From Mobula hypostoma (lineage: Eukaryota): a stretch of 64,000 nucleotides of DNA. Numbering within the stretch: the stretch's first letter is position 1; every line of letters begins with the position of its first letter. Below are positions 11,571-63,183 of the stretch, piece after piece. The stretch is taken from contig NC_086097.1 of assembly GCF_963921235.1 (NCBI RefSeq), forward strand, positions 10,664,001 to 10,728,000, given 5' to 3'. Below the pieces are notes generated by a model that saw only the letters and a program-made list of their open reading frames with translations, was not told where the DNA came from and did not search any database. The translations under genes and the position numbers were made by a program.

Positions 11571-14500
11571 CTATTTCTTTAAGCATGTACCTATCCAAAA
11601 GTCTCTTATTAAAAAGTCTCTCCCTATTGTATCCACCTCCACCACAATTGCCAGCAGCCCATTCCACACACTCACCACTCTCTGAGTAAAAAACTTACCC
11701 CTGACATCTCCTCTGTACCTACTCCCCAGCACCTTAAACCTGTGTCCTCTTGTGGCAACCATTTCAGCCCTGAGAAAAAGCCTCTGTCTATCCACACGAT
11801 CAATGCCTCTCATCATCTTATACACCTCTATCAGGTCACCTCTCAACCTCTGTCGCTCCAAGGAGAAAAGGCCGAGTTCACTCAACCTATTCTCATAAGG
11901 CATGCTCCCCAGTCCAGGCAACATCCTTGTAAATCTCCTCTGCACCCTTTCTATGACTTCCACATCCTTCCTGTTGAGAGGCGAACGGAACTGAGCACAG
12001 TACTCCACGCGGGGTCTTACCAGGGTCCTATATAGCTGCAATATTATCTCTCTGTTCCAAAATTCAATTCCACGATTGATGAAGGCCAATACACCGTATG
12101 CCTTCTTAACCACAGAGTCAACCTGCGCAGCTGCTCTGAGCATCCAATGGACTTGGACTCCAAGATCCTTCTGATCCTCCACACAGCCATGAGTCTTACC
12201 ATTAATACTATATTCTGCCATCGTATTTGACCTACCAAAATGAACCACTTCACACTTATCTGGGTTGAACTCCATCAGCCACCTCTCAACCCAGTTTTGC
12301 ATCCTATCAATGTCCCACTGTAACCTCTGACAGCCCTCCACACTATTCACAGCACCTCCAACCTTTGTGTCATCAACAAACTTACTAACTCATCCCTCCA
12401 CTTCCTCATCCAGGTCATTCATAAAAATCATGAAGAGTGAGGGTCCCAGAACAGATCCCTGAGGCAAACCACAGGCCACTGACCTCCATGCAGAAAGTGA
12501 CCCGTCTACAACCACTCTTTGCCTTCTGTGGGCCGCCCGTTCTGGATCCACAAAGCAATATCCCCTTGGATCTCATGCCTCCTTACTTTCTCAATAAGCC
12601 TTCCATGGGGTACCTTATCAAATGCCTTGCTGAAATCCATATACACTACATCTACTGCTCTACCTTCATCAATGTGTTTAGTCACATCCTCAAAAAATTC
12701 AATCAGGCTCGTAAGGCACGACCTGCCCTTGACAAAGCCATGCTGACTATTCCTAATCATATTATACCTCTCCAAATTTTCATAAATTCTGTCTCTCAGG
12801 ATCTTCTCCATCAACTTACCAACCACTGAAGTAAGACTCACTGGTCTATAATTTCCTGGGCTATCTCTACTCCCTTTATTGAATAAAAGAAAACATCTGC
12901 AACCCTCCAATCCTCTGGAACCTCCCCCCGTCCCCATTGATGATGCAAAGATCATTGCCAGAGGCTCAGCAATCTCCTCCCTTGCTCCCACAATAGCCTG
13001 GGGCACATCTCATCCGGTCCATGCAATTTATCCAATTTGTTGCTTCCCGAAGCTCCAGCACATCCTCTTTGTTAATATCTACATTCTCAAGCTTTTCAGT
13101 CTGCTGCAAGTCATCACTGCAATCACGAAGATTCTTTTCTATAGTGAATACTGAAGTAAAATATTCATTAAGTACCTCTGCTATTTCCTCCAGTTCCATA
13201 CACACTTTCCCACTGTCACATTTGTTAGGTTCTATTCTTTCACGTCTTATCCTGTTGCTCTTCACATACTTTAGGATGCCTTGGGGTTCTACTTAATCCT
13301 GTCCACCAAGGCCTTCTCATGGCCTCTCCTAATTTCCTTCTTAAGCTCCTTCCTGTTAGCCTTATAATCTTCTAGATTTCTAATATTACCTAGCTCTCTG
13401 AACCTTTTGTACACTTTTCTTTTCTTCTTGACTAGATTTATTACAGCCTTTGTACACCACGGTTCCTGTACCCTACCATAACTTCCTTGTCTCCTTGGAA
13501 TGTACCTATGCAGAAATACACACAAATATCCCTGAACATTTGCCACATTTCTTCCGTACTTTTCCCCGAGAACATCTGTTCCCAACTTAAGCTTCCAATT
13601 TCCTGCCTGATAGCCTTATAATTCCCCTTACTCCAATTAAATGGTTTTCTAACTTAGAAACATAGAAAGATAGAAAATAGGTGCAGGAGTAGGCCATTCG
13701 GCCCTTCAAGCCTGCACCACCATTCAGTATGATCATGGCTGACCATCCAACTCAGAACCCTGTAGCTGCCTTCTCTCCATACCCCCTGATCCCTTTAGCC
13801 ACAAGTGCCATATCTAACTCTTAAATATAGCCAATGAACTGGCCTCAACTGTTTCCTGTGGCAGAGAATTCCACAGATTCACCACTCTCTGTGTGAAGAA
13901 GTTTTTCCTCATCTCGGTCCTAAAAGGCTTCCCCTTCATCCTCAAACTATGACCCCTCGTTCTGGACTTCCCCAACATCGGGAACAATCTTCCTGCATCT
14001 AGCCTGTCCAATCCATTTAGAATTTCATACGTTTGAATCAGATCCCCCCTCAAACTTCTAAATTCTAGAGAGTACAAAACTAGTCGATCCAGTCTTTCAT
14101 CATGTGAAAGTCCTGCCATCCCAGGAATCAATCTGGTGAACCTTCTTTGTACTCCCTCTATGGCAAGGATGTCTTTCCTCAGATTAAGGGACCAAAACTG
14201 CACACAATACTCCAGGTGTGGTCTCACCAAGGCCTTGTACAACTGCAGTAGTACGTCCCTGCTCCTGCACTCAAATCCTCTGGCTATGAATGCCAGCATA
14301 CCATTCGCCTTTTTCACCGCCTGCTGTACCTGCATGCCCACTTTCAATGACTGGTGTATAAAGACACCCAGGTCTCGTTGCACCTCCCCTTTTCCTAATC
14401 GACCACCATTCAGATAATAATCTGTTTTCCTGTTCTTGTCACCAAAGTAGATAACCTCACATTTATCCACATTAAATTGCATCTGCCATGAATTTGCCCA

Positions 14501-16447
14501 CTCACCTAACCTATCCAAGTCACCCTGCATCCTCTTAGCATCCTCCTCACAGCTAACACTGCCGCCCAGCTTTGTGTCATCAGCAAACTTGGAGACGCTG
14601 CATTTAATTCCCTCGTCTAAGTCATTAATATATATTGTAAACAACTGGGGTCCCAGCACTGAGCCTTGCGGTACCCCACTAGTCACTGCCTGCCATTCTT
14701 GAAAGGTCCCGTTTATTCCCACTCTTTGCTTTCTGTCTGCCAACCAATTCTCTATCCACATCAATACCATACCCCCAATACTGTGTGCTTTAAGTTTGCA
14801 CACTAATCTCCTGTGTGGGACCTTGTCAAAAGCCTTTTGAAAATCCAAATATACCACATCCACTGGTTCTCCCCTATCCACTCTACTAGTTACATCCTCA
14901 AAAAATTCTATGAGATTCGTCAGACGTGATTTTCCTTTCACAAATCCATGCTGACTTTGTCCTATGATTTCACTGCTTTCCAAATGTGCTGTTATCACAT
15001 CTTTGATAACTGACTCTAGCATTTTCCCCACCACCGATGTCAGGCTTACCAGTCTATAATTCCCCGGTTTCTCTCTCCGTCCTTTTTCAAAAAGTGGGGT
15101 TACATTAGCCACCCTCCAATCCTCAGGAACTAATCCAGTATCTAAAGAGTTTTGAAAAATTATCACTAATGCATCTACTATCTGTTGGGCTACTTCCTTA
15201 AGCACTCTGGGATGCAGACTATCTGGCCCTGGGGATTTATCTGCCTTCAATCCCTTCAATTTACCTAACACCACTTCCCTACTAACATGTATTTCCCTCA
15301 GTTCCTCCGTCTCACTAGACCCTCGGTCCCCTACTATTTCCGGAAGATTATTTATGTCCTCCTTAGTGAAGACAGAACCAAAGTAGTTATTCAATTGGTC
15401 TGCCATGTCCTTGTTCCCCATGATCAATTCACCTTTTTCTGACTGTAAGGGACCTACCTTTGTCTTAACCAATCTTTTTCTTTTCACATATCTATAAAAG
15501 CTTTTACAGTCAGTTTTTATGTTCCCTGCCAGCTTTCTCTCATAATCTTTTTTTTCCCCTTTCCTAATTAAGCCCTTTGTCCTCCTCTGCTGGACTTTGA
15601 ATTTCTCCCAGTCCTCAGGTGTGCCACCTTTTCTGGCTAATTTGTATGTTTCTTCTTTGGAATTGATACTATCCCCAATTTCCCTTGTCAGCCATGGGTT
15701 CACTACCTTCCCTGGTTTATTCTTTTGCCAAACTGGGATGAACAATTGTTGTAGTTCATTCATGCGATCTTTAAATGCTTGTCTGTTCATATCTCACTCT
15801 AATGCTATTGTAAAGGCGATAGAATTATGATCACTATCTCCAAAATGCTCTCTCACTGAGAGATCTGACACCTGACCAGGTTCATTTCCCAATACCAAAT
15901 CAAGTGCAGACTCTCCTCTTGTAGGCTTATCTACATATTGTGTCAAGAAACCTTCCTGAACACACCTAACAAACTCTACCCCATCTAAGCCCCTTGCTCT
16001 TAGGAGATGCCAATCAATATTTGGGAAATTAAAATCTCCCATCACGACAACTCTGTTATTATTACACTTTTCCAGGATCTGTTTCCCTATCTGCTCCTCG
16101 ATATCCCTGTTACTACTGTGCAGCCTAAAAAGAACACCTAGTAAAGTTATTGACCCCTTCCTGTTCCTAACCTCCACCCACAGAGACTCCGTAGATAATC
16201 CCTCCATGGCGTCCACCTTTTCTGCAGCCGTGACACTATCTCTGATCAACAGTGCCATGCCCCCACCTCTTTTGCCTCCCTCCCTGTCCTTTCTGAAACA
16301 TCTAAAACCCGGCACTTGTAGTAACCGTTCCTGTCCCAGAGCCATCCAAGTCTCTGTAATGACCACCACATCATAGCTGCGAGTACTGATCCATGCTCTA
16401 AGCTCATCTGCTTTGTTCACAATACTCCTTGCGATAAATAGACACAT
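11571..16447 (-). pseudogene. CR1 ORF2 (APE endonuclease + reverse transcriptase), disrupted
   Basis: ARSIVNK..YDVVVITETW..VVMGDFNFP..LDLVL..SDH (15794-16447); [36 protein letters not shown] (12506-13006). Confidence 0.9.
13656..15780 (-). mobile_element. Young 5'-truncated CR1 with a ~655-codon open RT frame, nested in the full-length CR1
   Basis: ORF 13814-15790 carries all RT motifs ([28 protein letters not shown]). The host rejoins as TTTTCTAACTT|GTCTGTTC (compare 29126-29145); CTT is present at both junctions. Confidence 0.95.
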
Positions 16448-16586
16448 CTCAAACCTTCATTCTGAGCACGTCCCTTCTCTATCACCTGCCTATCCTCCCT
16501 CTCGCACTGTCTACAAGCTTTCTTTATTTGTGAGCCAACCGCCTCTTCCCCAGTCTCTTCAGTTCGGTTCCCACCACCCAACAATT

Positions 16587-17519
16587 CTAGTTTAAACTCA
16601 CCCCAGTAGCCTTAGCAAACTTTCCCGCCAGGATATTGATCCCCCTGGGATTCAAGTGCAACCCGTCCTTTTTGTACAGGTCACACCTGCTCCAAAAGAG
16701 GTCCCAATGATCCAGAAATCTGAATCCCTGCCCCCTGCTCCAATCCTTCAGCTACGTATTTATCCTCTACCTCACTCTAGTCCTACTCTCACTGTCACGT
16801 GGCACAGGCAGTAATCCCGAGATTACTACCTTTGTGGTCCTGCTTCTCAACTTCCTTCCTAACTCCCTGTAGTCTTTTTTCAGGACCTCTTCCCTTTTCC
16901 TACCTATGTCTCTGGTACCAATATGTACCACGACCTCTCGCTGTTCTCCCTCCCACTGCAGGATATCTTGGACGCGATCTGAAACATCCGGGACCCTGGC
17001 ACCTGGGATGCAAACTACCATCCGAGTTTCTTTCCTGTGTCCACAGAATCGCCTGCTAACCCCCTAACTATAGAGTCCCCTATCACTGCAGCCATCCTCT
17101 TCTTTTCCCTACCCTTCTGAGCCACAGGGCCAGACTCTGTCCCAGAGGCACAGCCACTGTTACTTCCCCCAGGTAGGGTGTCCCCGCCAACAGTACTCAA
17201 ACAGGAGTACTTATTGTCAAGGGGTACAGCCACAGGGGTACTCTCTAGTACCTGACTCTTCCCCTTCCCCCTCCTGACTGTGACCCACTCGTCTGTCTCC
17301 CATGGCCCCCAGTGTGACCACCTGCCTATAATTTCTTTCTATCACCAACTCGCTCTCCCTGACCAGATGAAGGTCATTATACTGCATCTCCAGTTCCTCA
17401 ACGCAGTCCCTTAGGAGCTGCAGCTCGAAACACTGGGTGCCGATATGGCCATCCGGGAGGCTGGGAGACTCCAGGACCTCCCACATCTGACACTGAGCGC
17501 AGAAAACCGACCTCATACA
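16587..17519 (-). pseudogene. CR1 ORF1 (Cys-rich N-terminus, coiled coil, SGNH/GDSL esterase), frameshifted
   Basis: CAQCQMWE..C(F)ELQLLRDCVEELE; AVIGDSIVRG; VVCIPGARVPDV..VVVHIGTRDIG..VVISGLLPVPR. Confidence 0.85.
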
Positions 17520-40411: not shown

Positions 40412-41888
40412 TGGTTTACCTAGGTTTATCCATAGCCCTCTATTTTTCTGAGCTCCATGTACATATCAAGGAGTCTCTTGAAAGTCCCTATCATATCTGC
40501 CTCCACCACCACCACCGGCAGCCCATTCCACGCACTCACCACTCTCTGCATAAAAAACTTACTCCTGACATCTCCTCTGTACCTGCTTCCTAGCACCTTA
40601 AAGCTTCCTCTCGTGCTAGCGATTTCAGCCCTGGGAAAAAGCCTCTGACTATCCACACGTCAATGCCTCTCATCATCTTATACACCTCCATCAGGTCACC
40701 TCTCATCCTCTGCCGCTCCAAGGAGGAAAGGACGAGTTAACTCAACCTATTCTCATCAGACATGCTCCCCAATCCAGGCAACATCCTTGTAAATCTCCTC
40801 TGCGCCCTTTCTATGGCTTCCACATCCTTCCTGTAGTGAGGCGACCAGAACTGAGCATAGTACTCCAACTGGAGGCTGACCAGGGTCCTATATAGCTGCA
40901 ACATTACCTCTCGAATCTTAAACTCAATTCCACGATTGATGAAGGCCAATGCACCATATGCCTTCTTAACCACAGAGTCAACTTGCGCAGCAGCTTTGAG
41001 TGTCCTATGGACTCAGACCCCAAGATCCCTCCAATCCTCCACACTGCCAAGAGTCTTACCATTAATACTATATTCTGCCATCATACTTGTCCTACCAAAA
41101 TGAACCGCACACTTACCTAGACTGAACTCCATCTGTCACTTCTCAGCCTAGTTTTGCATCCTATTGATGTCCCGCTGTAACTTCTGACAGCCCTCCACAC
41201 TATTCACAACACCCCCAACCTTTGTGTCATCAGCAAATTTACTAATCCATCCCTCCACTGCCTCATTTACAACACGCCGGAGGAACTCAGCAGGTCAGGC
41301 AGCATCCGTGGAAACAATCAGTCAATGTTTCGGGCCTGAACCCTTCACCAAAACATTAACTGATCGTTTGCACGGATGCTGCCCGACCTGCTGAGTTCCT
41401 CCAGCGTGGTGTAAGTGTTGCTTTGACCCCAGCATCTGCAGAGTATTTTGTGTTTACCTCCACTACCTCATCCAGATCATTTATAAAAATCACGAAGAGA
41501 AGGGGTCCCAGAACAGATCCCTGAAGCACACCACTGGTCACCAACTTCCATGCGGAATATGACCCGTCTACAACCACTCTTTGCCTTCTGTGGGCAAGCC
41601 ACTTCTGGATCCACAAAGCAATGTTCCCTTGGATCCCATGCTTCCTTACTTTCTGAATAAGCCTTGCATGCGATACCTTATCAAATGTCTTGCTGAAATC
41701 TATATACACTACATTTACTGCTCTACCTTCATCAATGTATTCAGTCACATCCTCAAAAAGTTCAATCAGGCTCATAAGGCACGACCTGCCTTTGACAAAG
41801 CCATGCTGACTATTCCTAACCATATTATGCCTCTCCAAATGTTCATAAATCCTGCCTCTCAGGATCTTCTCCATCAATTTACCAACCA
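40412..41888 (-). mobile_element. CR1 RT and 3' fragment (family of 11469-17810)
   Basis: ORFs 41356-41904, 40737-40973 and 40426-40656. Confidence 0.9.
41267..41456. mobile_element. PLE fold-back insertion (inverted pseudo-LTR)
   Basis: 15-bp TSD CCTCCACT(G/A)CCTCAT (41252-41266 / 41457-41471); ~64-bp inverted arms at 41267-41331 and 41351-41414. Confidence 0.9.
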
Positions 41889-44269: not shown

Positions 44270-45511
44270 GAAAGGCTTTCAGAGGAAAGCAGCATCCATC
44301 TCCAGAGATCCCCACCACCCAGGCCACACCCTGTTCTCACTACTGGATCAGGCTGAAGGTACAAGAGCATCACAACGGCACCACCAGTAAGGAACAGGCT
44401 CTAACTCTCAACCATCAGGTGCTTGAATAAATGAAGATAACCACACTCACTTGCCTCATTATTGAAATATTCCCACAACCAGTGACCTCACTTTAAGGAC
44501 TCATTATTTCACTATCTCATGCTCTTGTTATTTATTGCTATTTATTTGTATTTGTATCTGCACAGTTTGTTGTCTTCCACACTCTGGCTGATGTTTCATT
44601 TGTCCTGTTATAGTCAAGTCAAGTCAAGTCACCTGTTATTGTCATTTCGACCATAACTGCTGGTACAGTACACAGTAAAAACAACACAACATTTTTCAGG
44701 ACTGTGGTGCTACATTAACTACACTGAACTACATAAAACTACACAAAACTACACTACCCTACAGACATCAAGGTTGCTGGTGAATGCAGCAGGCCAGGCA
44801 GCATCTCTAGGAAGAGGTACAGTCGACGTTTCAGACTGAGACCCTACATCAGGAGGAATTCTGCAGATGCTGGAAATTCAAGCAACACACATCAAAGTTG
44901 CTGGTGAACGCAGAAGGCCAGGCAGCATCTCTAGGAAGAGGTACAGTCGACGTTTCGGGACAAGACCAACCCAGACCACAGACCAACCCAGAACTGCATA
45001 AATTGCACAAAACAGTGCAGACATTACAATAAATAATAAACAAGACAATAGGCACAGTAGAGGGCAGTAGAGTCCAGGCTCTGGGTATTGAAGAGTCTGA
45101 TTGCTTGGGGGAAGAAACTGTTACATAGTCTGGTCGTGAGAGCCCGAATACTTTGGTGCCTTTTGCCAGATGGCAGGAGGGAGAAGAGTTTGTATGAAGG
45201 GTGCGCGAGGTCCTTCATAATGCTGTTTGCTTTACGAATGCAGCGTGTAGTGTAAATGTCTGTAATGGCGGGAAGAGAGACCCCGATGATCTTCTCAGCT
45301 GACCTCACTATCCGCTGCAGGTTCTTGCGATCCAAGATGGTGCAATTTCCGAACCAGGCAGTGATGCAGCTGCTCAGGATGCTCTCAATACAACCTCTGT
45401 AGAGTAGTTACTACTCTATAGACTTGCTGAATATGCTGACAGGAAAATGAATGTCAGGGTTGTATACTGTGACATATATGTTCTTTGATAATAAAATGTA
45501 CTTTGAACTTT
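44270..45511 (+). mobile_element. Rex-type 3' fragment split by a second, minus-strand Rex (44615-45402)
   Basis: The host rejoins at CCTGTTATAGT|TACTACTC with TAGT duplicated; the insert encodes DRKNLQRIVRSAEKIIGVSLP..FSLLPSGKR. Confidence 0.85.
44765..44960 (-). mobile_element. Tandem PLE pseudo-LTR pair with two GAAACGTCGACT hammerhead halves
   Basis: Direct repeat 44765-44832 / 44889-44955. Confidence 0.85.
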
Positions 45512-46526
45512 GTAATTACTTCAGGCTATGTCAATCCACAGGCAGAGTGCATCTAATATTGTATTTCGAGAGTCATTGTTCGATCCATTGAGACTGAGCA
45601 AATTGGGCCACCACTTTGCATGTAAATAAGGCCATGAGCAAGTGCAGCAGAGTTGGTGTTTAGTTGGTTAAGTACCCTCAGGACAGTCACAGGCAAATTC
45701 AGGTGATGGTCTAGCATTTATAAAAGCCACACCCAGGGAGCTTTAACTATTGTCGTATACCATTTAGCTAGGTCTTCTAATCTACAGTAATAAACTACAA
45801 CAAATTCAGAATGGTTCAAATTATAACCACTTTTATTACTTGCAGGGGAAGATCTACCTCCATATGTTAAATCATTGGAAGGTAGCTTCAACCTAACAGC
45901 TCAGAACAAACCATTTTTATACTTTTGCAGAGACATTAATTTTCATGTTTTTGAGGTCATTCCATCTCATAATCGCATTCCTTCCTCATCTGGATCCGTC
46001 TCTGGTTCCTGGCACCTGTTCTTTAATCAGTCCATTTGTCTTCTGAGGTTTCTTCCCCATGACAGCTGTGTCCTGTTTTTCTCTGTTCTCAAAATATAAA
46101 TACACGCACTGTCATAAAACATACATAGACTCCTTGTAACCCTCCATCCAAACCAATAAAACATTCTGGGATTGCACAGGTCCCATTTTGTCACATTAGA
46201 GTTTACAACAGTTCATGAAGACTTCAGGGTAGATTTCACACTGTATTGTGTTTTGTAATACTACTCATGATGTAGTTAAACTTGTGTAATTGAGAAAAAG
46301 GAATATCACACAAATATTCTGAAGTTTACAGGTAATCGTCATTGTCATATTCTTTTCAAAGGCTAATATAATTTTTCTTTGGATATTCTTTACATATTAC
46401 CTATAAAGCAGCTTTTTGCAAAATATTTCAGACAATACTTTTTCTTTACTAATTATATATGATTCATTCTGCTTTTAAAAACTTTTAGTCCTTGACGAGC
46501 TTTGAAAACTATATAGCATTTATGGT

Positions 46527-46678
46527 AACACACATCAACGAAGGTTAGTCCTGACGAAGGGTCTCGGCCTGAAACGTCGACTGCACCTCTTCCTACAGAT
46601 GCTGCCCGGCCTGCTGCGTTCACCAGCAACTTTGATGTGTGTTGCTTGAATTTCCAGCATCTGCAGAATTCCTGTTGT
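46527..46678 (+). mobile_element. Young minimal PLE insertion
   Basis: Perfect 13-bp TSD TAGCATTTATGGT (46514-46526 / 46679-46691); the 5' AACACACATCAA is an inverted copy of 46632-46643. Confidence 0.92.
46547..46582 (+). ncRNA. Minimal type I hammerhead ribozyme motif (PLE-associated), intact core
   Basis: AGUC-CUGACGA-AGG(GUCUCGG)CCU-GAAA-CGUC^GACU: stem I AGUC/GACU, loopless palindromic stem III ACGU. Confidence 0.8.
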
Positions 46679-47959
46679 TAGCATTTATGGTGTTTCTTTG
46701 AAAAATCTCTAAGCCAATTACATGGTGCATAATTGGAGAAAAAATAGAGAAAATTACTTGTTATTTTTACTTATGATTGCATTGTAATATTTATCATATT
46801 AATGCCCTCAAATTGCAACCTAAAGCAGATCAAAAAGATATTGAAAGAAAACTGTCGATTTGCTCTCTTATGTGGTGTTGGCTGACGAGTAATTTTCATA
46901 ATCACCATTTAATGACTCAATTTACAAAGAGAATAATGGTGAGGATCTCAATGCTCAGTGCTATTATACAGAAAATCTGACAGGAGCTTCTGGAAAATGC
47001 ACATGCATAGTTAACTTAAAAATGAACCATTGACTGAGAGTAATTCTTGCTTCTCTGTAAGACATATGGTTCTGCAGCCCTCTCCAGCAAAAACATGAGA
47101 TGTCAGCACACTCACAAGAGCTTAAGATGTTTACAAGCAACTTTCACTGCAAAAGACCCTGAAAAATTGTATACTTTATTACATGAAGATGTGTCAAATT
47201 GCTCAAAACTGAAATGCTATGCTATAATTTATTTCCAAAAATATTTTGGTACTAAAATAAAATTGATTTTAGATGTATAGATTGCTATTGTCTGAAAAGA
47301 AATTAAATTACTTCAAAATTCAGTAATTGTTCAAGGTCATTGTGATAAATATATTAAAATGGGGAAACTGTGTGTCCTATACACAGATCAGTAAATAAAC
47401 ATTTCAGAAATGTGAAAATGATTGTAAATTAGGCTTAGCATAAGGATGTACAGAATACAACTCTTTTAGTTTAAGAGGAAACATAGGAGGCTTGATTTTC
47501 GTTTTCTCCTTTGAAAATTGATGGTAAGGTTTTTCGGATCTTCTTTGGAGGTACTATATACTTGGTTTGGTTTGGCCTCACCTTAGTATCTTTGCTGCCT
47601 GATCTGTCGAGTCACTCCAGAATTTTGTGTGTGTGGCTCTGGATTTCTAGCATTTGCAGAATTCCTTGTGTCTGGATCACAAAGATAAATGAAAAATTTG
47701 TAAACTGAGTTGCTGTGGGAGACTAGGTACAGCTTAAACAAGTTGGATGTAAATACCTGAGAGAAAGAACCAGGTTTAGTCAGATATCAAAGAAAGGCCT
47801 CAGATACTATGATGGAGGCTGTTTACAAAATATTTTTAGATGCTTCTGGTGGAACAGCGAGAACTTTGCTTATTAATCTCTTTTTGGCTAAATCTCAAAA
47901 ACAAAATACAACTATCTTGACCATGGCATTTCCTGGCATTGCTTCAACACTTTTGATAA

Positions 47960-48249
47960 GGGGTACAATGACAGCATAGCAGTTAATGCAACATTATTAC
48001 AGCCCAGGTCATTGGAGTTCAGAGTTCAATTCCAGAGTCTTCCGTAAGAAAGTTCATACGTTCTTCGCGTGTGCGCATGGGATTCCTCCATGTGCTCAAA
48101 GTTTCTTCCCACAGTCCAAAAACATACCAGTTAATAGGTTAAGTTGTCAGTGTAAATTGTCCTGTGATTGAGCTAGTGCTAAATCAGTGGTTTGCTGGGT
48201 GTCGTGGCTCGTTGGACCAGAAGGGCCTGTTTCACGTTGTGTCTCCAGA
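47960..48249 (+). mobile_element. HE1-like V-SINE
   Basis: GAGTTCAATTCC; CCCACAGTCCAAAAAC; GAAGGGCCTGTTTC tail; homologous to 7292-7574. Confidence 0.8.
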
Positions 48250-51644: not shown

Positions 51645-52437
51645 CTTTATTCATTTTATTTTAAAGGTACAGCATAGAACAGGCCCTTCTGGCTCAAAGA
51701 GCCACACCGCCCAGCCCATCGATCTAACGCTAGCCTAATCATGGGACAATTTACAATGACCAGCTAACTTACTAACCGGTGTATCTTTGGACAGTGGGAG
51801 TAAACGGAGCTCCTGGAGGAAACTCACACGGTCTTTGGGAGAATGTACAGACCCCAGACGAAAGAAAGAGATTAAAAAGGCAGAGTAAGAATGCTGGGGG
51901 AGGAGAGGAGAGGAAGAAGTAGGTAGTAGGTGGTAGGTGAAACTGGGAGAGGGGGAGTGGAGAAGTAAAGAGCTGGCAAGTCAAGCGGTGAAAGAGATAA
52001 AGGATTAGAGAAGTGGGTATCTGATGGGAGAAGACAGAAATCCATGGAAGAAAGAGAAGGGGAGGAGTACTAGGGCAGGTAAGGAGATAAGGTGAGAGAG
52101 GGAAATGGGAATGGGGAATGATGAAGGAGAAGGGCAATTACCAGAAGATAGAAAAATCAATTTTCACACCATCAGGCTGGAAGGTTACCCTGATGAAATA
52201 TAAAGTGTTGCTCCTCCAACCTGAGTTTGGCCTCATCGCGACAGTATGTGAGGCCACAGACTGACATACTTGAACAGGAATGGGAAGCAGAATTGAATTT
52301 GGTAATTTTGCGATTACTTTGAATTTTAGCATCTGCAGATTTTTTCTTGTCTGTGATTAGGCTGGGTGGGTTGCAGGGCAGTGCAGCTCATTAGAAGGGC
52401 CTATTCCACACTGTATCTCTAAATTTAAAAAAAATAA
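51645..52437. mobile_element. Composite: HE1-like SINE (-), PLE end (-, 51855-52300), PLE terminus (+), SINE tail (+)
   Basis: Antisense V domain at 51790-51830; antisense EEQHFIFHQGNLPA / DGVKIDFS at 52140-52220; GAAGGGCCTATTCCACACTGTATCTCTAAA at 52394. Confidence 0.7.
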
Positions 52438-54473: not shown

Positions 54474-54509
54474 AGTCCTGAAGAAGGGTGTCAGCCTGAA
54501 ACGTTGACT
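54474..54509 (+). ncRNA. Minimal hammerhead ribozyme motif in a PLE end (~54360-54608), intact core
   Basis: AGUC-CUGAAGA-AGG(GUGUCAG)CCU-GAAA-CGUU^GACU; palindrome AACGUU. Confidence 0.7.
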
Positions 54510-55029
54510 GTTTACTCTTTTCCACAGGTGCTGCTTGAACTCTGAGTTCCTTCAGCATTTTGTATGAGTTGCTTTGGATTTCCAGCATCTGCAGATGTTC
54601 TCGTGTTTGTGTTCTCTTTAATTTAACTCCTTTCTTACTGGGTGGTTTCCTGCCACCAGGCAGGTTACACAGAGGACTCATTAGACTCCACCGACCCCTC
54701 GGTTAATGGTAGATGTCCATGGCATAAAAAAGGTTGGGAATCCGGCCGTAGAGCATGAGAAAAATATATTAATGATCCAGAGACATGTGTTTGAATTTCC
54801 CAATGTCAGCCTAGAAATGTAAATTGAATCGGTTGCATAGATAAACTAGAAACCAAATAGCAATTGAAAAAATATTAAATTGTTCCAAAAAAGGGACCAC
54901 TTCACTAGTATCTTTTAGGGAGAGGTAACTAGATACATTAACTGTAACAGTTTTAGTCCTTCTGTGAAAATGGCGTTTTTGACTCCCAATACCAACTATC
55001 TTGTTGGCAAACATACAGTCTCTAGTAAA

Positions 55030-62074: not shown

Positions 62075-62134
62075 TATGTATAACACTATGCTGAATGAGA
62101 TATTAAATGGAATATAACCAATGCAAATAACATA

Positions 62135-63183
62135 CAAGAGAAAATCTGCAGTTGCTGGAAATCCAAGCAACACACACAAAATGCTGGAGGAACTCAGCAG
62201 GCCAGGTAGCATTTATAGAAAGGAGTAGGTCAATTTTTCAGGCCAAGACCCTTAATCAGGACTGGAGAAAAAAAGATGAGGAGTCAAGTTAGAAGGTGCG
62301 GGGGGGGGGGCAGGGAGAGGGGAGGGAAAGAAGAAACAAAAGGTGAAGGGTGTAAATGGAGAGGGGGGAGGGATGAAGTAAAGAGCTGGGAAGTTGATTA
62401 GTGAAAGAGATACAGGGCTGGAGAAGGGGGAATCTGATAGGAGAGGACAGAAGGCCATGGAAGAAAGAAAAGGATCAGGAGCATCAGAGGGACGTGATCG
62501 GAAGGCAGGAGGATAAGGTGAGAGAAGGAAATGGGAATAGGATTGGTGAAGGGGGTGGGGCATTATCGGAAGGTTGAGAAATCAATGTTCTTGCCTTCAG
62601 GTTGGAGGCTACCCAGACGGAATGCAAGGTGTTGCTCCTCCAGCCTGAACGTGACCTCCATTCCAACATGTCAGTCCAGTGCCTCCTCTACCATCCTGAT
62701 GAGACGATACTCAGGCAGGGGGAGCAACACCTTATATTCCGTCTGGTTAGCCTCCAACCCGGTGGCATTAGCATCGATTTCTTGAACTTCCAGTAATTCC
62801 CCCTCCCCTTCACCAGTCCCCATTCCCTTTTCCCTCTCTTTTTATCTCCTTATCTGCCCATCACCCCCCTCTGGTGCTCCTCCCCCCTTTTCTTTCTTCA
62901 ATGGTCATCTGTCCTCTCTTACCAGATTCCCCTTCTCCAGTCCTGTATCTCTTTCACCAACCAACTTCCCAGCTCTTTACTTCACCCCTTCCCCACCACC
63001 TCCCGGTTTCACCTCTCACCTTGTGTTTCTCCCTCCCCTCCCCCACCTTCTAACTCTGACTCCTCATCTCTTATTCTTCAGTCCTGATGAAGGGTCTCAG
63101 CCCGAAACATCGACTGTTTACTCCTTTCTATGGACGCTACTTGGCTTGTGGAGTTCCTCCTGCATTTTGCGTGTGTTGGACGT
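62135..63183. mobile_element. PLE with ~0.5-kb inverted pseudo-LTR arms
   Basis: Minus arm 62135-62658, plus arm 62659-63183 (EQHLIFRLVSLQPGGISIDFLNFQ*); hammerhead motifs at 62228-62263 (-) and 63080-63115 (+); putative TSD AAATAA(C/T)ATA. Confidence 0.85.

Follow-up and report, generated by a model that had tools for sequence, protein, structure and literature searches.

A 152-bp insertion in the genome of Mobula hypostoma raises the question of whether a hammerhead motif carried by a Penelope-like element (PLE) can still act as a ribozyme, and whether the sequence around it amounts to a mobile unit in its own right, as an earlier note on this DNA had proposed. We analysed the insertion within a window of 64,000 nt (contig NC_086097.1, positions 10,664,001 to 10,728,000); all coordinates below are positions in this window. 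Our overall reading, which we hold with good confidence, is that the insert is a short 5′-truncated PLE-end insertion at a site that is empty in two relatives, and that the hammerhead probably rides along as a passenger, without cutting here.

A recent insertion with an exact target-site duplication

The 152-bp insert (46527-46678) lies between identical 13-bp direct repeats, as read directly from the sequence (Table 1). In random placements, a direct repeat reached 13 bp in 5 of 5,000 cases, a null that includes the site itself, and exceeded 11 bp in 0 of 4,975 cases when the insertion site was excluded, which rules out a 13-bp repeat by chance. That the repeat is a true target-site duplication (TSD) follows from the contig of a related organism (B), which joins 46513 straight to 46679 and holds a single copy; the earlier description of a 152-bp insert with a perfect 13-bp TSD thus stands. 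The insert has a G+C content of 51% and, as had also been described, retains CpGs, with 7 CpG at an observed/expected ratio of 0.71 vs 0.29 for the window. Folding of the insert as a whole is unremarkable (z = −1.2; 25 of 200 shuffles fold equally well).

Table 1. Features of the insert and its target site
Feature	Position	Strand	Basis
Target-flank stretch matching 46545-46557 with one extra base (13/14)	46485..46498	+	Shuffle test
Left TSD, 13 bp, left edge within a TATATA stretch	46514..46526	+	Identical to 46679-46691; one copy at the empty site of organism B
Inverted arm, 12 nt, exact reverse complement of 46632-46643	46527..46538	-	Sequence match
Junction filler, 5 nt	46539..46543	.	Other copies carry different, C/T-rich sequence before 46544 (loose ends)
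Forward arm, last 135 nt of the PLE pseudo-LTR	46544..46678	+	Similarity to other arms in the window
Minimal type I hammerhead (core motif 46547-46582)	46544..46586	+	Sequence, pair probabilities and features described in parts of PMC4209133
'Tail', 35 nt, on one arm only	46644..46678	+	Bimodal 3′ ends of 15 window arms
Right TSD, 13 bp	46679..46691	+	Repeat identity and empty site of organism B

Of the 23 listed runs, four were aligned to 45700-47500: X1 (a possible source; organism A), X5 (organism B), X9 (organism C) and X18. In organism B (X5 record 22), letters 1-682 of the contig correspond to 45855-46513 and letters 683-1504 to 46679-47499, so that the site is empty with one TSD copy; this contig differs from the window flanks at 36 of 1,480 letters (2.4%). 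The contig of organism C (X9 record 28), which differs from the flanks at 35 of 845 letters (4.1%), covers 46212-46494 and 46680-47241; the two blocks are 36 letters apart in the contig vs 185 in the window. Its site is also empty, since the 36 letters equal the 20 expected for an empty site plus a 16-nt piece that B also has behind 46482. The X1 contigs span both insert junctions without differences (46058-46569 and 46659-47500), and the empty-site joint is absent among the joints listed for X1. The young age ascribed to the insertion is thus supported by an empty site in both of the related organisms that were aligned. Very probably the insertion postdates the split of A from B; B and C are represented by one individual each, which leaves room for polymorphism or lineage sorting. 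At position 46607 this copy has a C where 97% of the X1 depth has a T, so it carries at least one rare change.

A second length difference lies nearby. At 46482/46483, 31 nt from the insertion, B and, judging by length, C have 16 extra bases that start with a 12-nt direct repeat of the following sequence, and organism A appears to have lost one repeat unit there.

The insert derives from a Penelope-like element

The forward arm is one of 14 family arms in the window, the 13 others being found at an E value of 0.007 or better. The summed X1 depth over the insert is about 1e7 vs 13-28 in the unique flanks; this depth is no copy number, but it points to a very large family.

Several lines of evidence tie this family to PLEs. 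A reading frame upstream of the copy at 57839 matches four stingray proteins (four of five candidates) at 71-89% identity, and the open reading frame (ORF) end there is 86% identical to the C terminus of protein P0003. At its C terminus P0003 itself matches GIY-YIG, short of the cut-off (E = 8e-4; 20.1 bits vs 22.6), with a CX3CxxC motif before the match, and its nearest Atlas clusters bear RVT_1, HTH_animal and GIY-YIG (scores 0.96-0.97); the Pfam scan of P0003 returned no RVT_1 match. When P0003 was searched against the window with tblastn, four of the six matches were followed, 193-303 nt downstream and in the same orientation, by a family hammerhead. Taken together, the domains, the linker motif and this placement put the hammerhead in the 3′ pseudo-LTR (pLTR) of an endonuclease-bearing PLE, and the Penelope origin proposed earlier holds at the family level. 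The insert holds no ORF, no full ORF of its subfamily was seen, and the link runs via sister subfamilies that are 78-83% identical. We regard the insert as a PLE stump with near certainty.

A CX2-5CxxC linker marks Neptune and Nematis elements (PMC8557442, in the parts that treat linkers). Such a linker was read by eye in P0003 and P0006, which are relatives and not this locus, and the Neptune-type assignment comes from this linker in a related stingray protein rather than from a tree. P0003 had no PDB sequence match, and in metagenome contigs it matched three weak loci only (38-42% over 36-60 aa). In database models P0001, P0002, P0004, P0007 and P0008 the C terminus of the PLE ORF is fused to unrelated host proteins, by exonisation or as an annotation artefact.

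Two arms, a filler and a one-sided tail

The forward arm is 94% identical to 44854-44967, 89% identical to 44761-44854 and 73-89% identical to 11 other arms. By their 3′ ends the 15 arms in the window form two groups: 7, among them the 12-nt inverted arm, end 32-36 nt before the element does, and 8, among them the forward arm, have the tail. PLE tails of 30-40 bp are described in sections of PMC8557442 and PMC11167929. The inverted arm has its outer end exactly where the tail begins, 35 nt before the end of the element. A match as good as this 12-nt arm was obtained in 145 of 20,000 shuffled versions of the first 17 nt and in 26 of about 20,000 random 17-mers from the window, which itself holds sister copies. 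The filler looks templated, 46538-46544 being identical to 46554-46560.

An inverted pLTR with a tail at one end and a TSD of 8-10 bp has already been published (PMC3846280 and PMC8557442, in their passages on such insertions). The insert resembles these endonuclease-bearing (EN+) PLE insertions in its head-to-head inverted arm, the 35-nt tail on one arm, the TSD, the strong 5′ truncation and the TA-rich target. It differs in its extreme truncation, with arms of 12 nt and 135 nt and no ORF, and in a TSD of 13 bp vs 8-10 bp in the rotifer examples. The insert is a 5′-truncated end of a probably Neptune-type PLE and not a dedicated mobile unit. The idea that the mobile unit is little more than the pLTR fails on two counts: what was inserted is a truncated product that includes an inverted arm and a filler, and upstream sequence that other subfamily copies have is missing from this insert.

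We also considered a dedicated non-autonomous element of 152 bp, a retrozyme or SINE-like unit that was copied whole, perhaps via circular RNA. Such an element would fit the alignment of other loci across the 5′ junction, where 46539 has a depth of 252 in X1 vs 14.8 for the locus, and of 60 in X5, although X5 lacks this insertion; a master-copy model would lead one to expect this. Within the element, head-to-tail joints also exist; there is a tandem pair at 44761-44967, and monomeric derivatives of retrozymes are described in the portion of 10.64898/2026.07.22.740005 that deals with them. However, no insert end or junction falls at the cut site. The tandem junction at 44854 corresponds to 46673/46549 and not to 46578/46579, and the junctions listed elsewhere differ from the one here (3 nt left out at 46539 in X5; an opposite-strand joint 46548-46636). 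Further, the insert is a single copy, and most sister copies with an intact 5′ side run on into the PLE ORF end. Like the non-LTR retrozymes in the same account, the insert is small, non-coding and pLTR-derived with a type I hammerhead; unlike them, it is not tandem, its ends lie off the cut site and it has an inverted arm and a tail. The definition given there asks for at least two tandem units with complete hammerheads, whereas here there is a single copy and the cores of the 44761-44967 pair are broken. A dedicated element is thus very improbable, and we retain the truncated PLE end.

The pair at 44761-44967 lies on the minus strand, head to tail, and belongs to the same subfamily (94% and 89%). 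Its units overlap by 4 nt at the joint, both cores are broken, and the first unit has a tail and the second none. Other paired arms were seen in the window. At about 41260-41455 a small head-to-head PLE pair lies in a LINE, with its arms joined within the hammerhead, a tail on one arm and a 15-bp TSD with 1 mismatch. At 62134-63180 a 1-kb palindromic PLE pair has arms that are 76% identical, ORF C termini in the centre, a tail on one arm and a weak 9/10 repeat at its ends. A probable head-to-head pair at 51877-52350 combines a long minus-strand arm, which has an ORF end and is broken off before the hammerhead, with a short plus-strand arm that has a tail.

A complete hammerhead core with a G-U pair in stem II

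The motif reads AGUC (46547-46550), CUGACGA (46551-46557), a 13-nt stem II region, GAAA (46571-46574), C46575, GUC (46576-46578) and GACU (46579-46582), with cleavage predicted after C46578. Numbered as in the relevant part of PMC4209133, C3-A9 (46551-46557), G12-A14 and A15.1-U16.1 (46571-46574 and 46577) and H17 (C46578) are all present. Stem III is the palindrome ACGU (46574-46577; positions 15.2-16.2) without loop 3. Direct reading thus agrees with the earlier note on the core nucleotides and the loopless palindromic stem III. Stem I, which had been given as 4 bp, is present but longer: 46544-46550 pair with 46579-46586 over 5 bp, including U46546-G46583, or over 7 bp across a bulged C46584, and 5 of its pairs have probabilities of 0.68-0.99. 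Stem II (46559-46562 with 46567-46570) has 4 pairs at probabilities of 0.68-0.97, the first of which is G-U. An extra A46558 stands between A9 and G10.1; this register has a probability of 0.68-0.97 vs 0.02 for the shifted register, A10.1-U11.1, which is ruled out.

The 10.1-11.1 pair is therefore G46559-U46570 and not the conserved G-C, which the search descriptor of the class does not include. At 46570-46571, 10 other copies have CG (3), CA (2), TG (3) or TA (1), with 1 unaligned, a spread that suggests CpG decay of an original CG. Two copies of the same subfamily have one C and one T at 46570, and T46570 may instead be a subfamily variant. A literature search on a G10.1-U11.1 pair yielded nothing usable. 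With the conserved G10.1-C11.1 replaced, the hammerhead cannot be called intact, as it had been; the origin in the PLE family is left standing.

Comparison with the minimal hammerheads of metazoan PLEs, as far as they are characterized in the pertinent sections of PMC4209133, places the motif among them. It shares their full core, the extra nucleotide between 9 and 10.1, the short stem I, the lack of loop 3, the palindromic 15.2-16.2, the pLTR position and an occurrence mostly as single dispersed copies. It departs from them in the G-U that replaces G10.1-C11.1 and in a stem II of 4 bp, where the Schistosoma families have 7-8 bp. Of the four traits listed there for the class, three lend themselves to a check on a single copy: the extra base and the palindrome are present, and G10.1-C11.1 is absent.

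Rfam at gathering score gave no match in the window, and a search of 46300-46900 gave no hammerhead up to an E value of 10 and two weak unrelated matches (E = 0.92 and 1.5), so the hammerhead assignment rests on motif and family context. On the motif, the palindromic stem III and that context, the assignment to the minimal type I class is sound. A scan of both strands of the window for CTGANGA-N6..30-GAAAC returned 5 matches; the ACGU palindrome and GUC coincide only in the one at 46551. As had been proposed, the motif is the best of its kind in the window, in the sense of the best-preserved hammerhead among the copies there. An exact degenerate hammerhead pattern matched no stretch in viral contigs and none in metagenome contigs. 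An older copy (54474-54607; the scan match at 54478), on the same strand 7.9 kb downstream, has the nearest same-strand complete core and the ACGU palindrome but a GUU triplet.

The hammerhead is predicted to be idle

In the folding model, GACG (46553-46556) of the monomer pairs with CGUC (46575-46578) at probabilities of 0.77-0.99 in three sequence contexts, burying the core. The monomer core is thus predicted to be locked in an inactive hairpin or rod. The active double hammerhead is put at −11.9 kcal/mol vs −23.8 kcal/mol for two monomers and −32.1 kcal/mol for a non-catalytic duplex, in a model that leaves out tertiary core energy and was run with no active-ribozyme control, so that the energies do not amount to a test of activity. 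Published behaviour of related motifs is of the same kind. The sections of PMC4209133 on activity report that animal minimal hammerheads have no monomer activity and low dimer activity and that G10.1-C11.1 is highly conserved, and a review states that minimal hammerheads cleave as dimers at very low rates (PMC6765202, in its treatment of this class). The hammerhead of an anole PLE cuts only with its protein and is dispensable for insertion, and no RNA-seq reads ended at its cut site, according to the corresponding parts of PMC11167929.

Could this copy nevertheless be a working ribozyme in vivo, one that cleaves by pairing in trans with other family RNA to form a dimer, or with the aid of the PLE protein? 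Its core nucleotides and ACGU palindrome are complete, and stem II is still predicted to form with 4 pairs. Partners in trans may exist: the summed depth of the family is 186,000-348,000 in X18, whose status as RNA is a guess, and the core-complete copy at 54474 lies downstream on the same strand. The anole hammerhead also cuts once its protein is added. On the other side stand the G-U at 10.1-11.1, the predicted locking of the monomer core and the modelled energies, which favour both the two monomers and the non-catalytic duplex over the double hammerhead. The nearest copies (44761-44967) are antisense with broken cores, leaving no adjacent same-strand partner; the anole study, in the part cited, saw no ends at the cut site; and no host exon was recognised in 166 non-repeat reading frames of at least 55 aa. 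In the unique flank bins 46249-46492 and 46737-47500 the depth of X18, the run guessed to be RNA, is zero, which is not evidence on expression. We give a ribozyme at work in the cell only a slim chance, and cleavage of this copy in vivo is improbable. The hammerhead is likely a passenger, with no cutting at this locus, and this copy might cut weakly as an engineered dimer or with the element's protein.

Joints from 46575-46584 back to 46544-46548 were seen at other loci in organisms A, B and C. They represent tandem core duplications of about 32-37 nt and are possible natural in-cis dimers.

Two-ended priming as a possible route to the insert

Because the forward arm extends 35 nt past the cut site on its upstream side, we infer that the template RNA was uncut; a template cut at C17 is ruled out by the inclusion of sequence upstream of that site. 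In the mechanism that we favour, the element's GIY-YIG endonuclease would make a 13-nt staggered cut at the TA-rich site. The bottom-strand end would prime reverse transcription at a distal internal start site (46678), run for 135 nt and stop at the 5′ edge of the hammerhead hairpin (stem I) on uncut RNA. The top-strand end would prime at a proximal start site (46643) and run for 12 nt, and the two copies would be joined through the 5-nt filler. Two start sites and a staggered cut would thus yield a forward arm with the tail and an inverted arm without it. Any ribozyme role would belong to the tandem precursor RNA of full elements.

This scheme has a biochemical parallel in the Poseidon protein of the anole (Anolis carolinensis PAc). 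In the in vitro work described in portions of PMC11167929, that protein favours AT-rich DNA, of which it cuts both strands and extends them; its reverse transcription begins at two internal sites bounding the tail, and it inserts from uncut RNA. The insert is like PAc in its two internal end points that bound the tail, its AT-rich target and its uncut RNA template. It differs in clade and in sequence at the start: the start site of PAc is an AC-rich stem-loop within the beginning of its ORF, whereas in the insert the sense strand is GU-rich at the proximal end, without a recognised ORF start. A literature search for twin priming in PLEs returned no PLE-mechanism paper by title, and the idea may still be published.

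The inverted arm, and that step only, has a competing explanation: on the same PLE stump, self-priming or snap-back could have produced the arm, with no priming from the second nick. For inverted pLTRs, self-priming has been proposed to occur on an antisense template (PMC3846280, in the passage concerned), and the templated look of the filler suits it. It does not account for the outer end of the arm, which falls exactly on the tail boundary, as in 6 other arms; copying back along cDNA gives no cause to stop there. The extension of both strands in vitro, reported in the cited part of PMC11167929, likewise speaks against it. Self-priming is a real but lesser possibility, and we lean slightly towards two-ended priming as the source of both arms.

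A probably pre-existing match in the target flank

The flank contains a stretch that resembles the 5′ part of the forward arm (Table 1). In 5,000 shuffles of the 100-nt flank none reached its match score, a test made post hoc. The match is probably older than the insertion, since the B contig aligns through the stretch and the C contig aligns up to 46494. The forward arm ends exactly where this probably pre-existing 13/14 match to it lies, 16-29 nt from the cut. In one speculative reading, both ends of a 13-nt staggered cut serve as primers for the Penelope enzyme at its two internal start sites, and element-target pairing sets the landing or stopping point. We consider this combined scenario a long shot, and the match may be due to chance. 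If true, tiny dated insertions such as this one would be in vivo footprints of homology-guided Penelope integration.

Significance and window context

The locus is a real, young, well-preserved and ordinary stump of a known class of element, with a probably idle ribozyme motif one substitution away from the family form. As a ribozyme it carries little weight: such motifs are known and are very abundant in PLEs, and this copy departs from the intact form of its family. As an insertion that can be dated and whose empty site is known, it offers a clean and compact case for the question of how PLEs make inverted arms and tails, and with a collection of such sites two-ended priming and any role of target homology could be put to the test in vivo.

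Pfam scans of the 166 non-repeat frames of at least 55 aa and of 26 of 52 long frames found LINE-type RT, endonuclease and esterase-like pieces, a PIF1-like remnant and one weak match (E = 0.00098). No host exon was recognised in the scanned frames, a scan that would miss short exons. The PIF1-like piece (47761-47976, plus strand) is a decayed helicase fragment (Pfam E = 2.2e-6) and had no PDB sequence match and no longer homologue at an E value of 0.01. PIF1-like pieces often come from Helitrons, and this one is possibly a Helitron remnant. On the minus strand, 13817-17063 is the remnant of a long LINE; it has RT and AP endonuclease and, upstream of them, an esterase-like frame. Of the window as a whole, 47% is repeated within itself.
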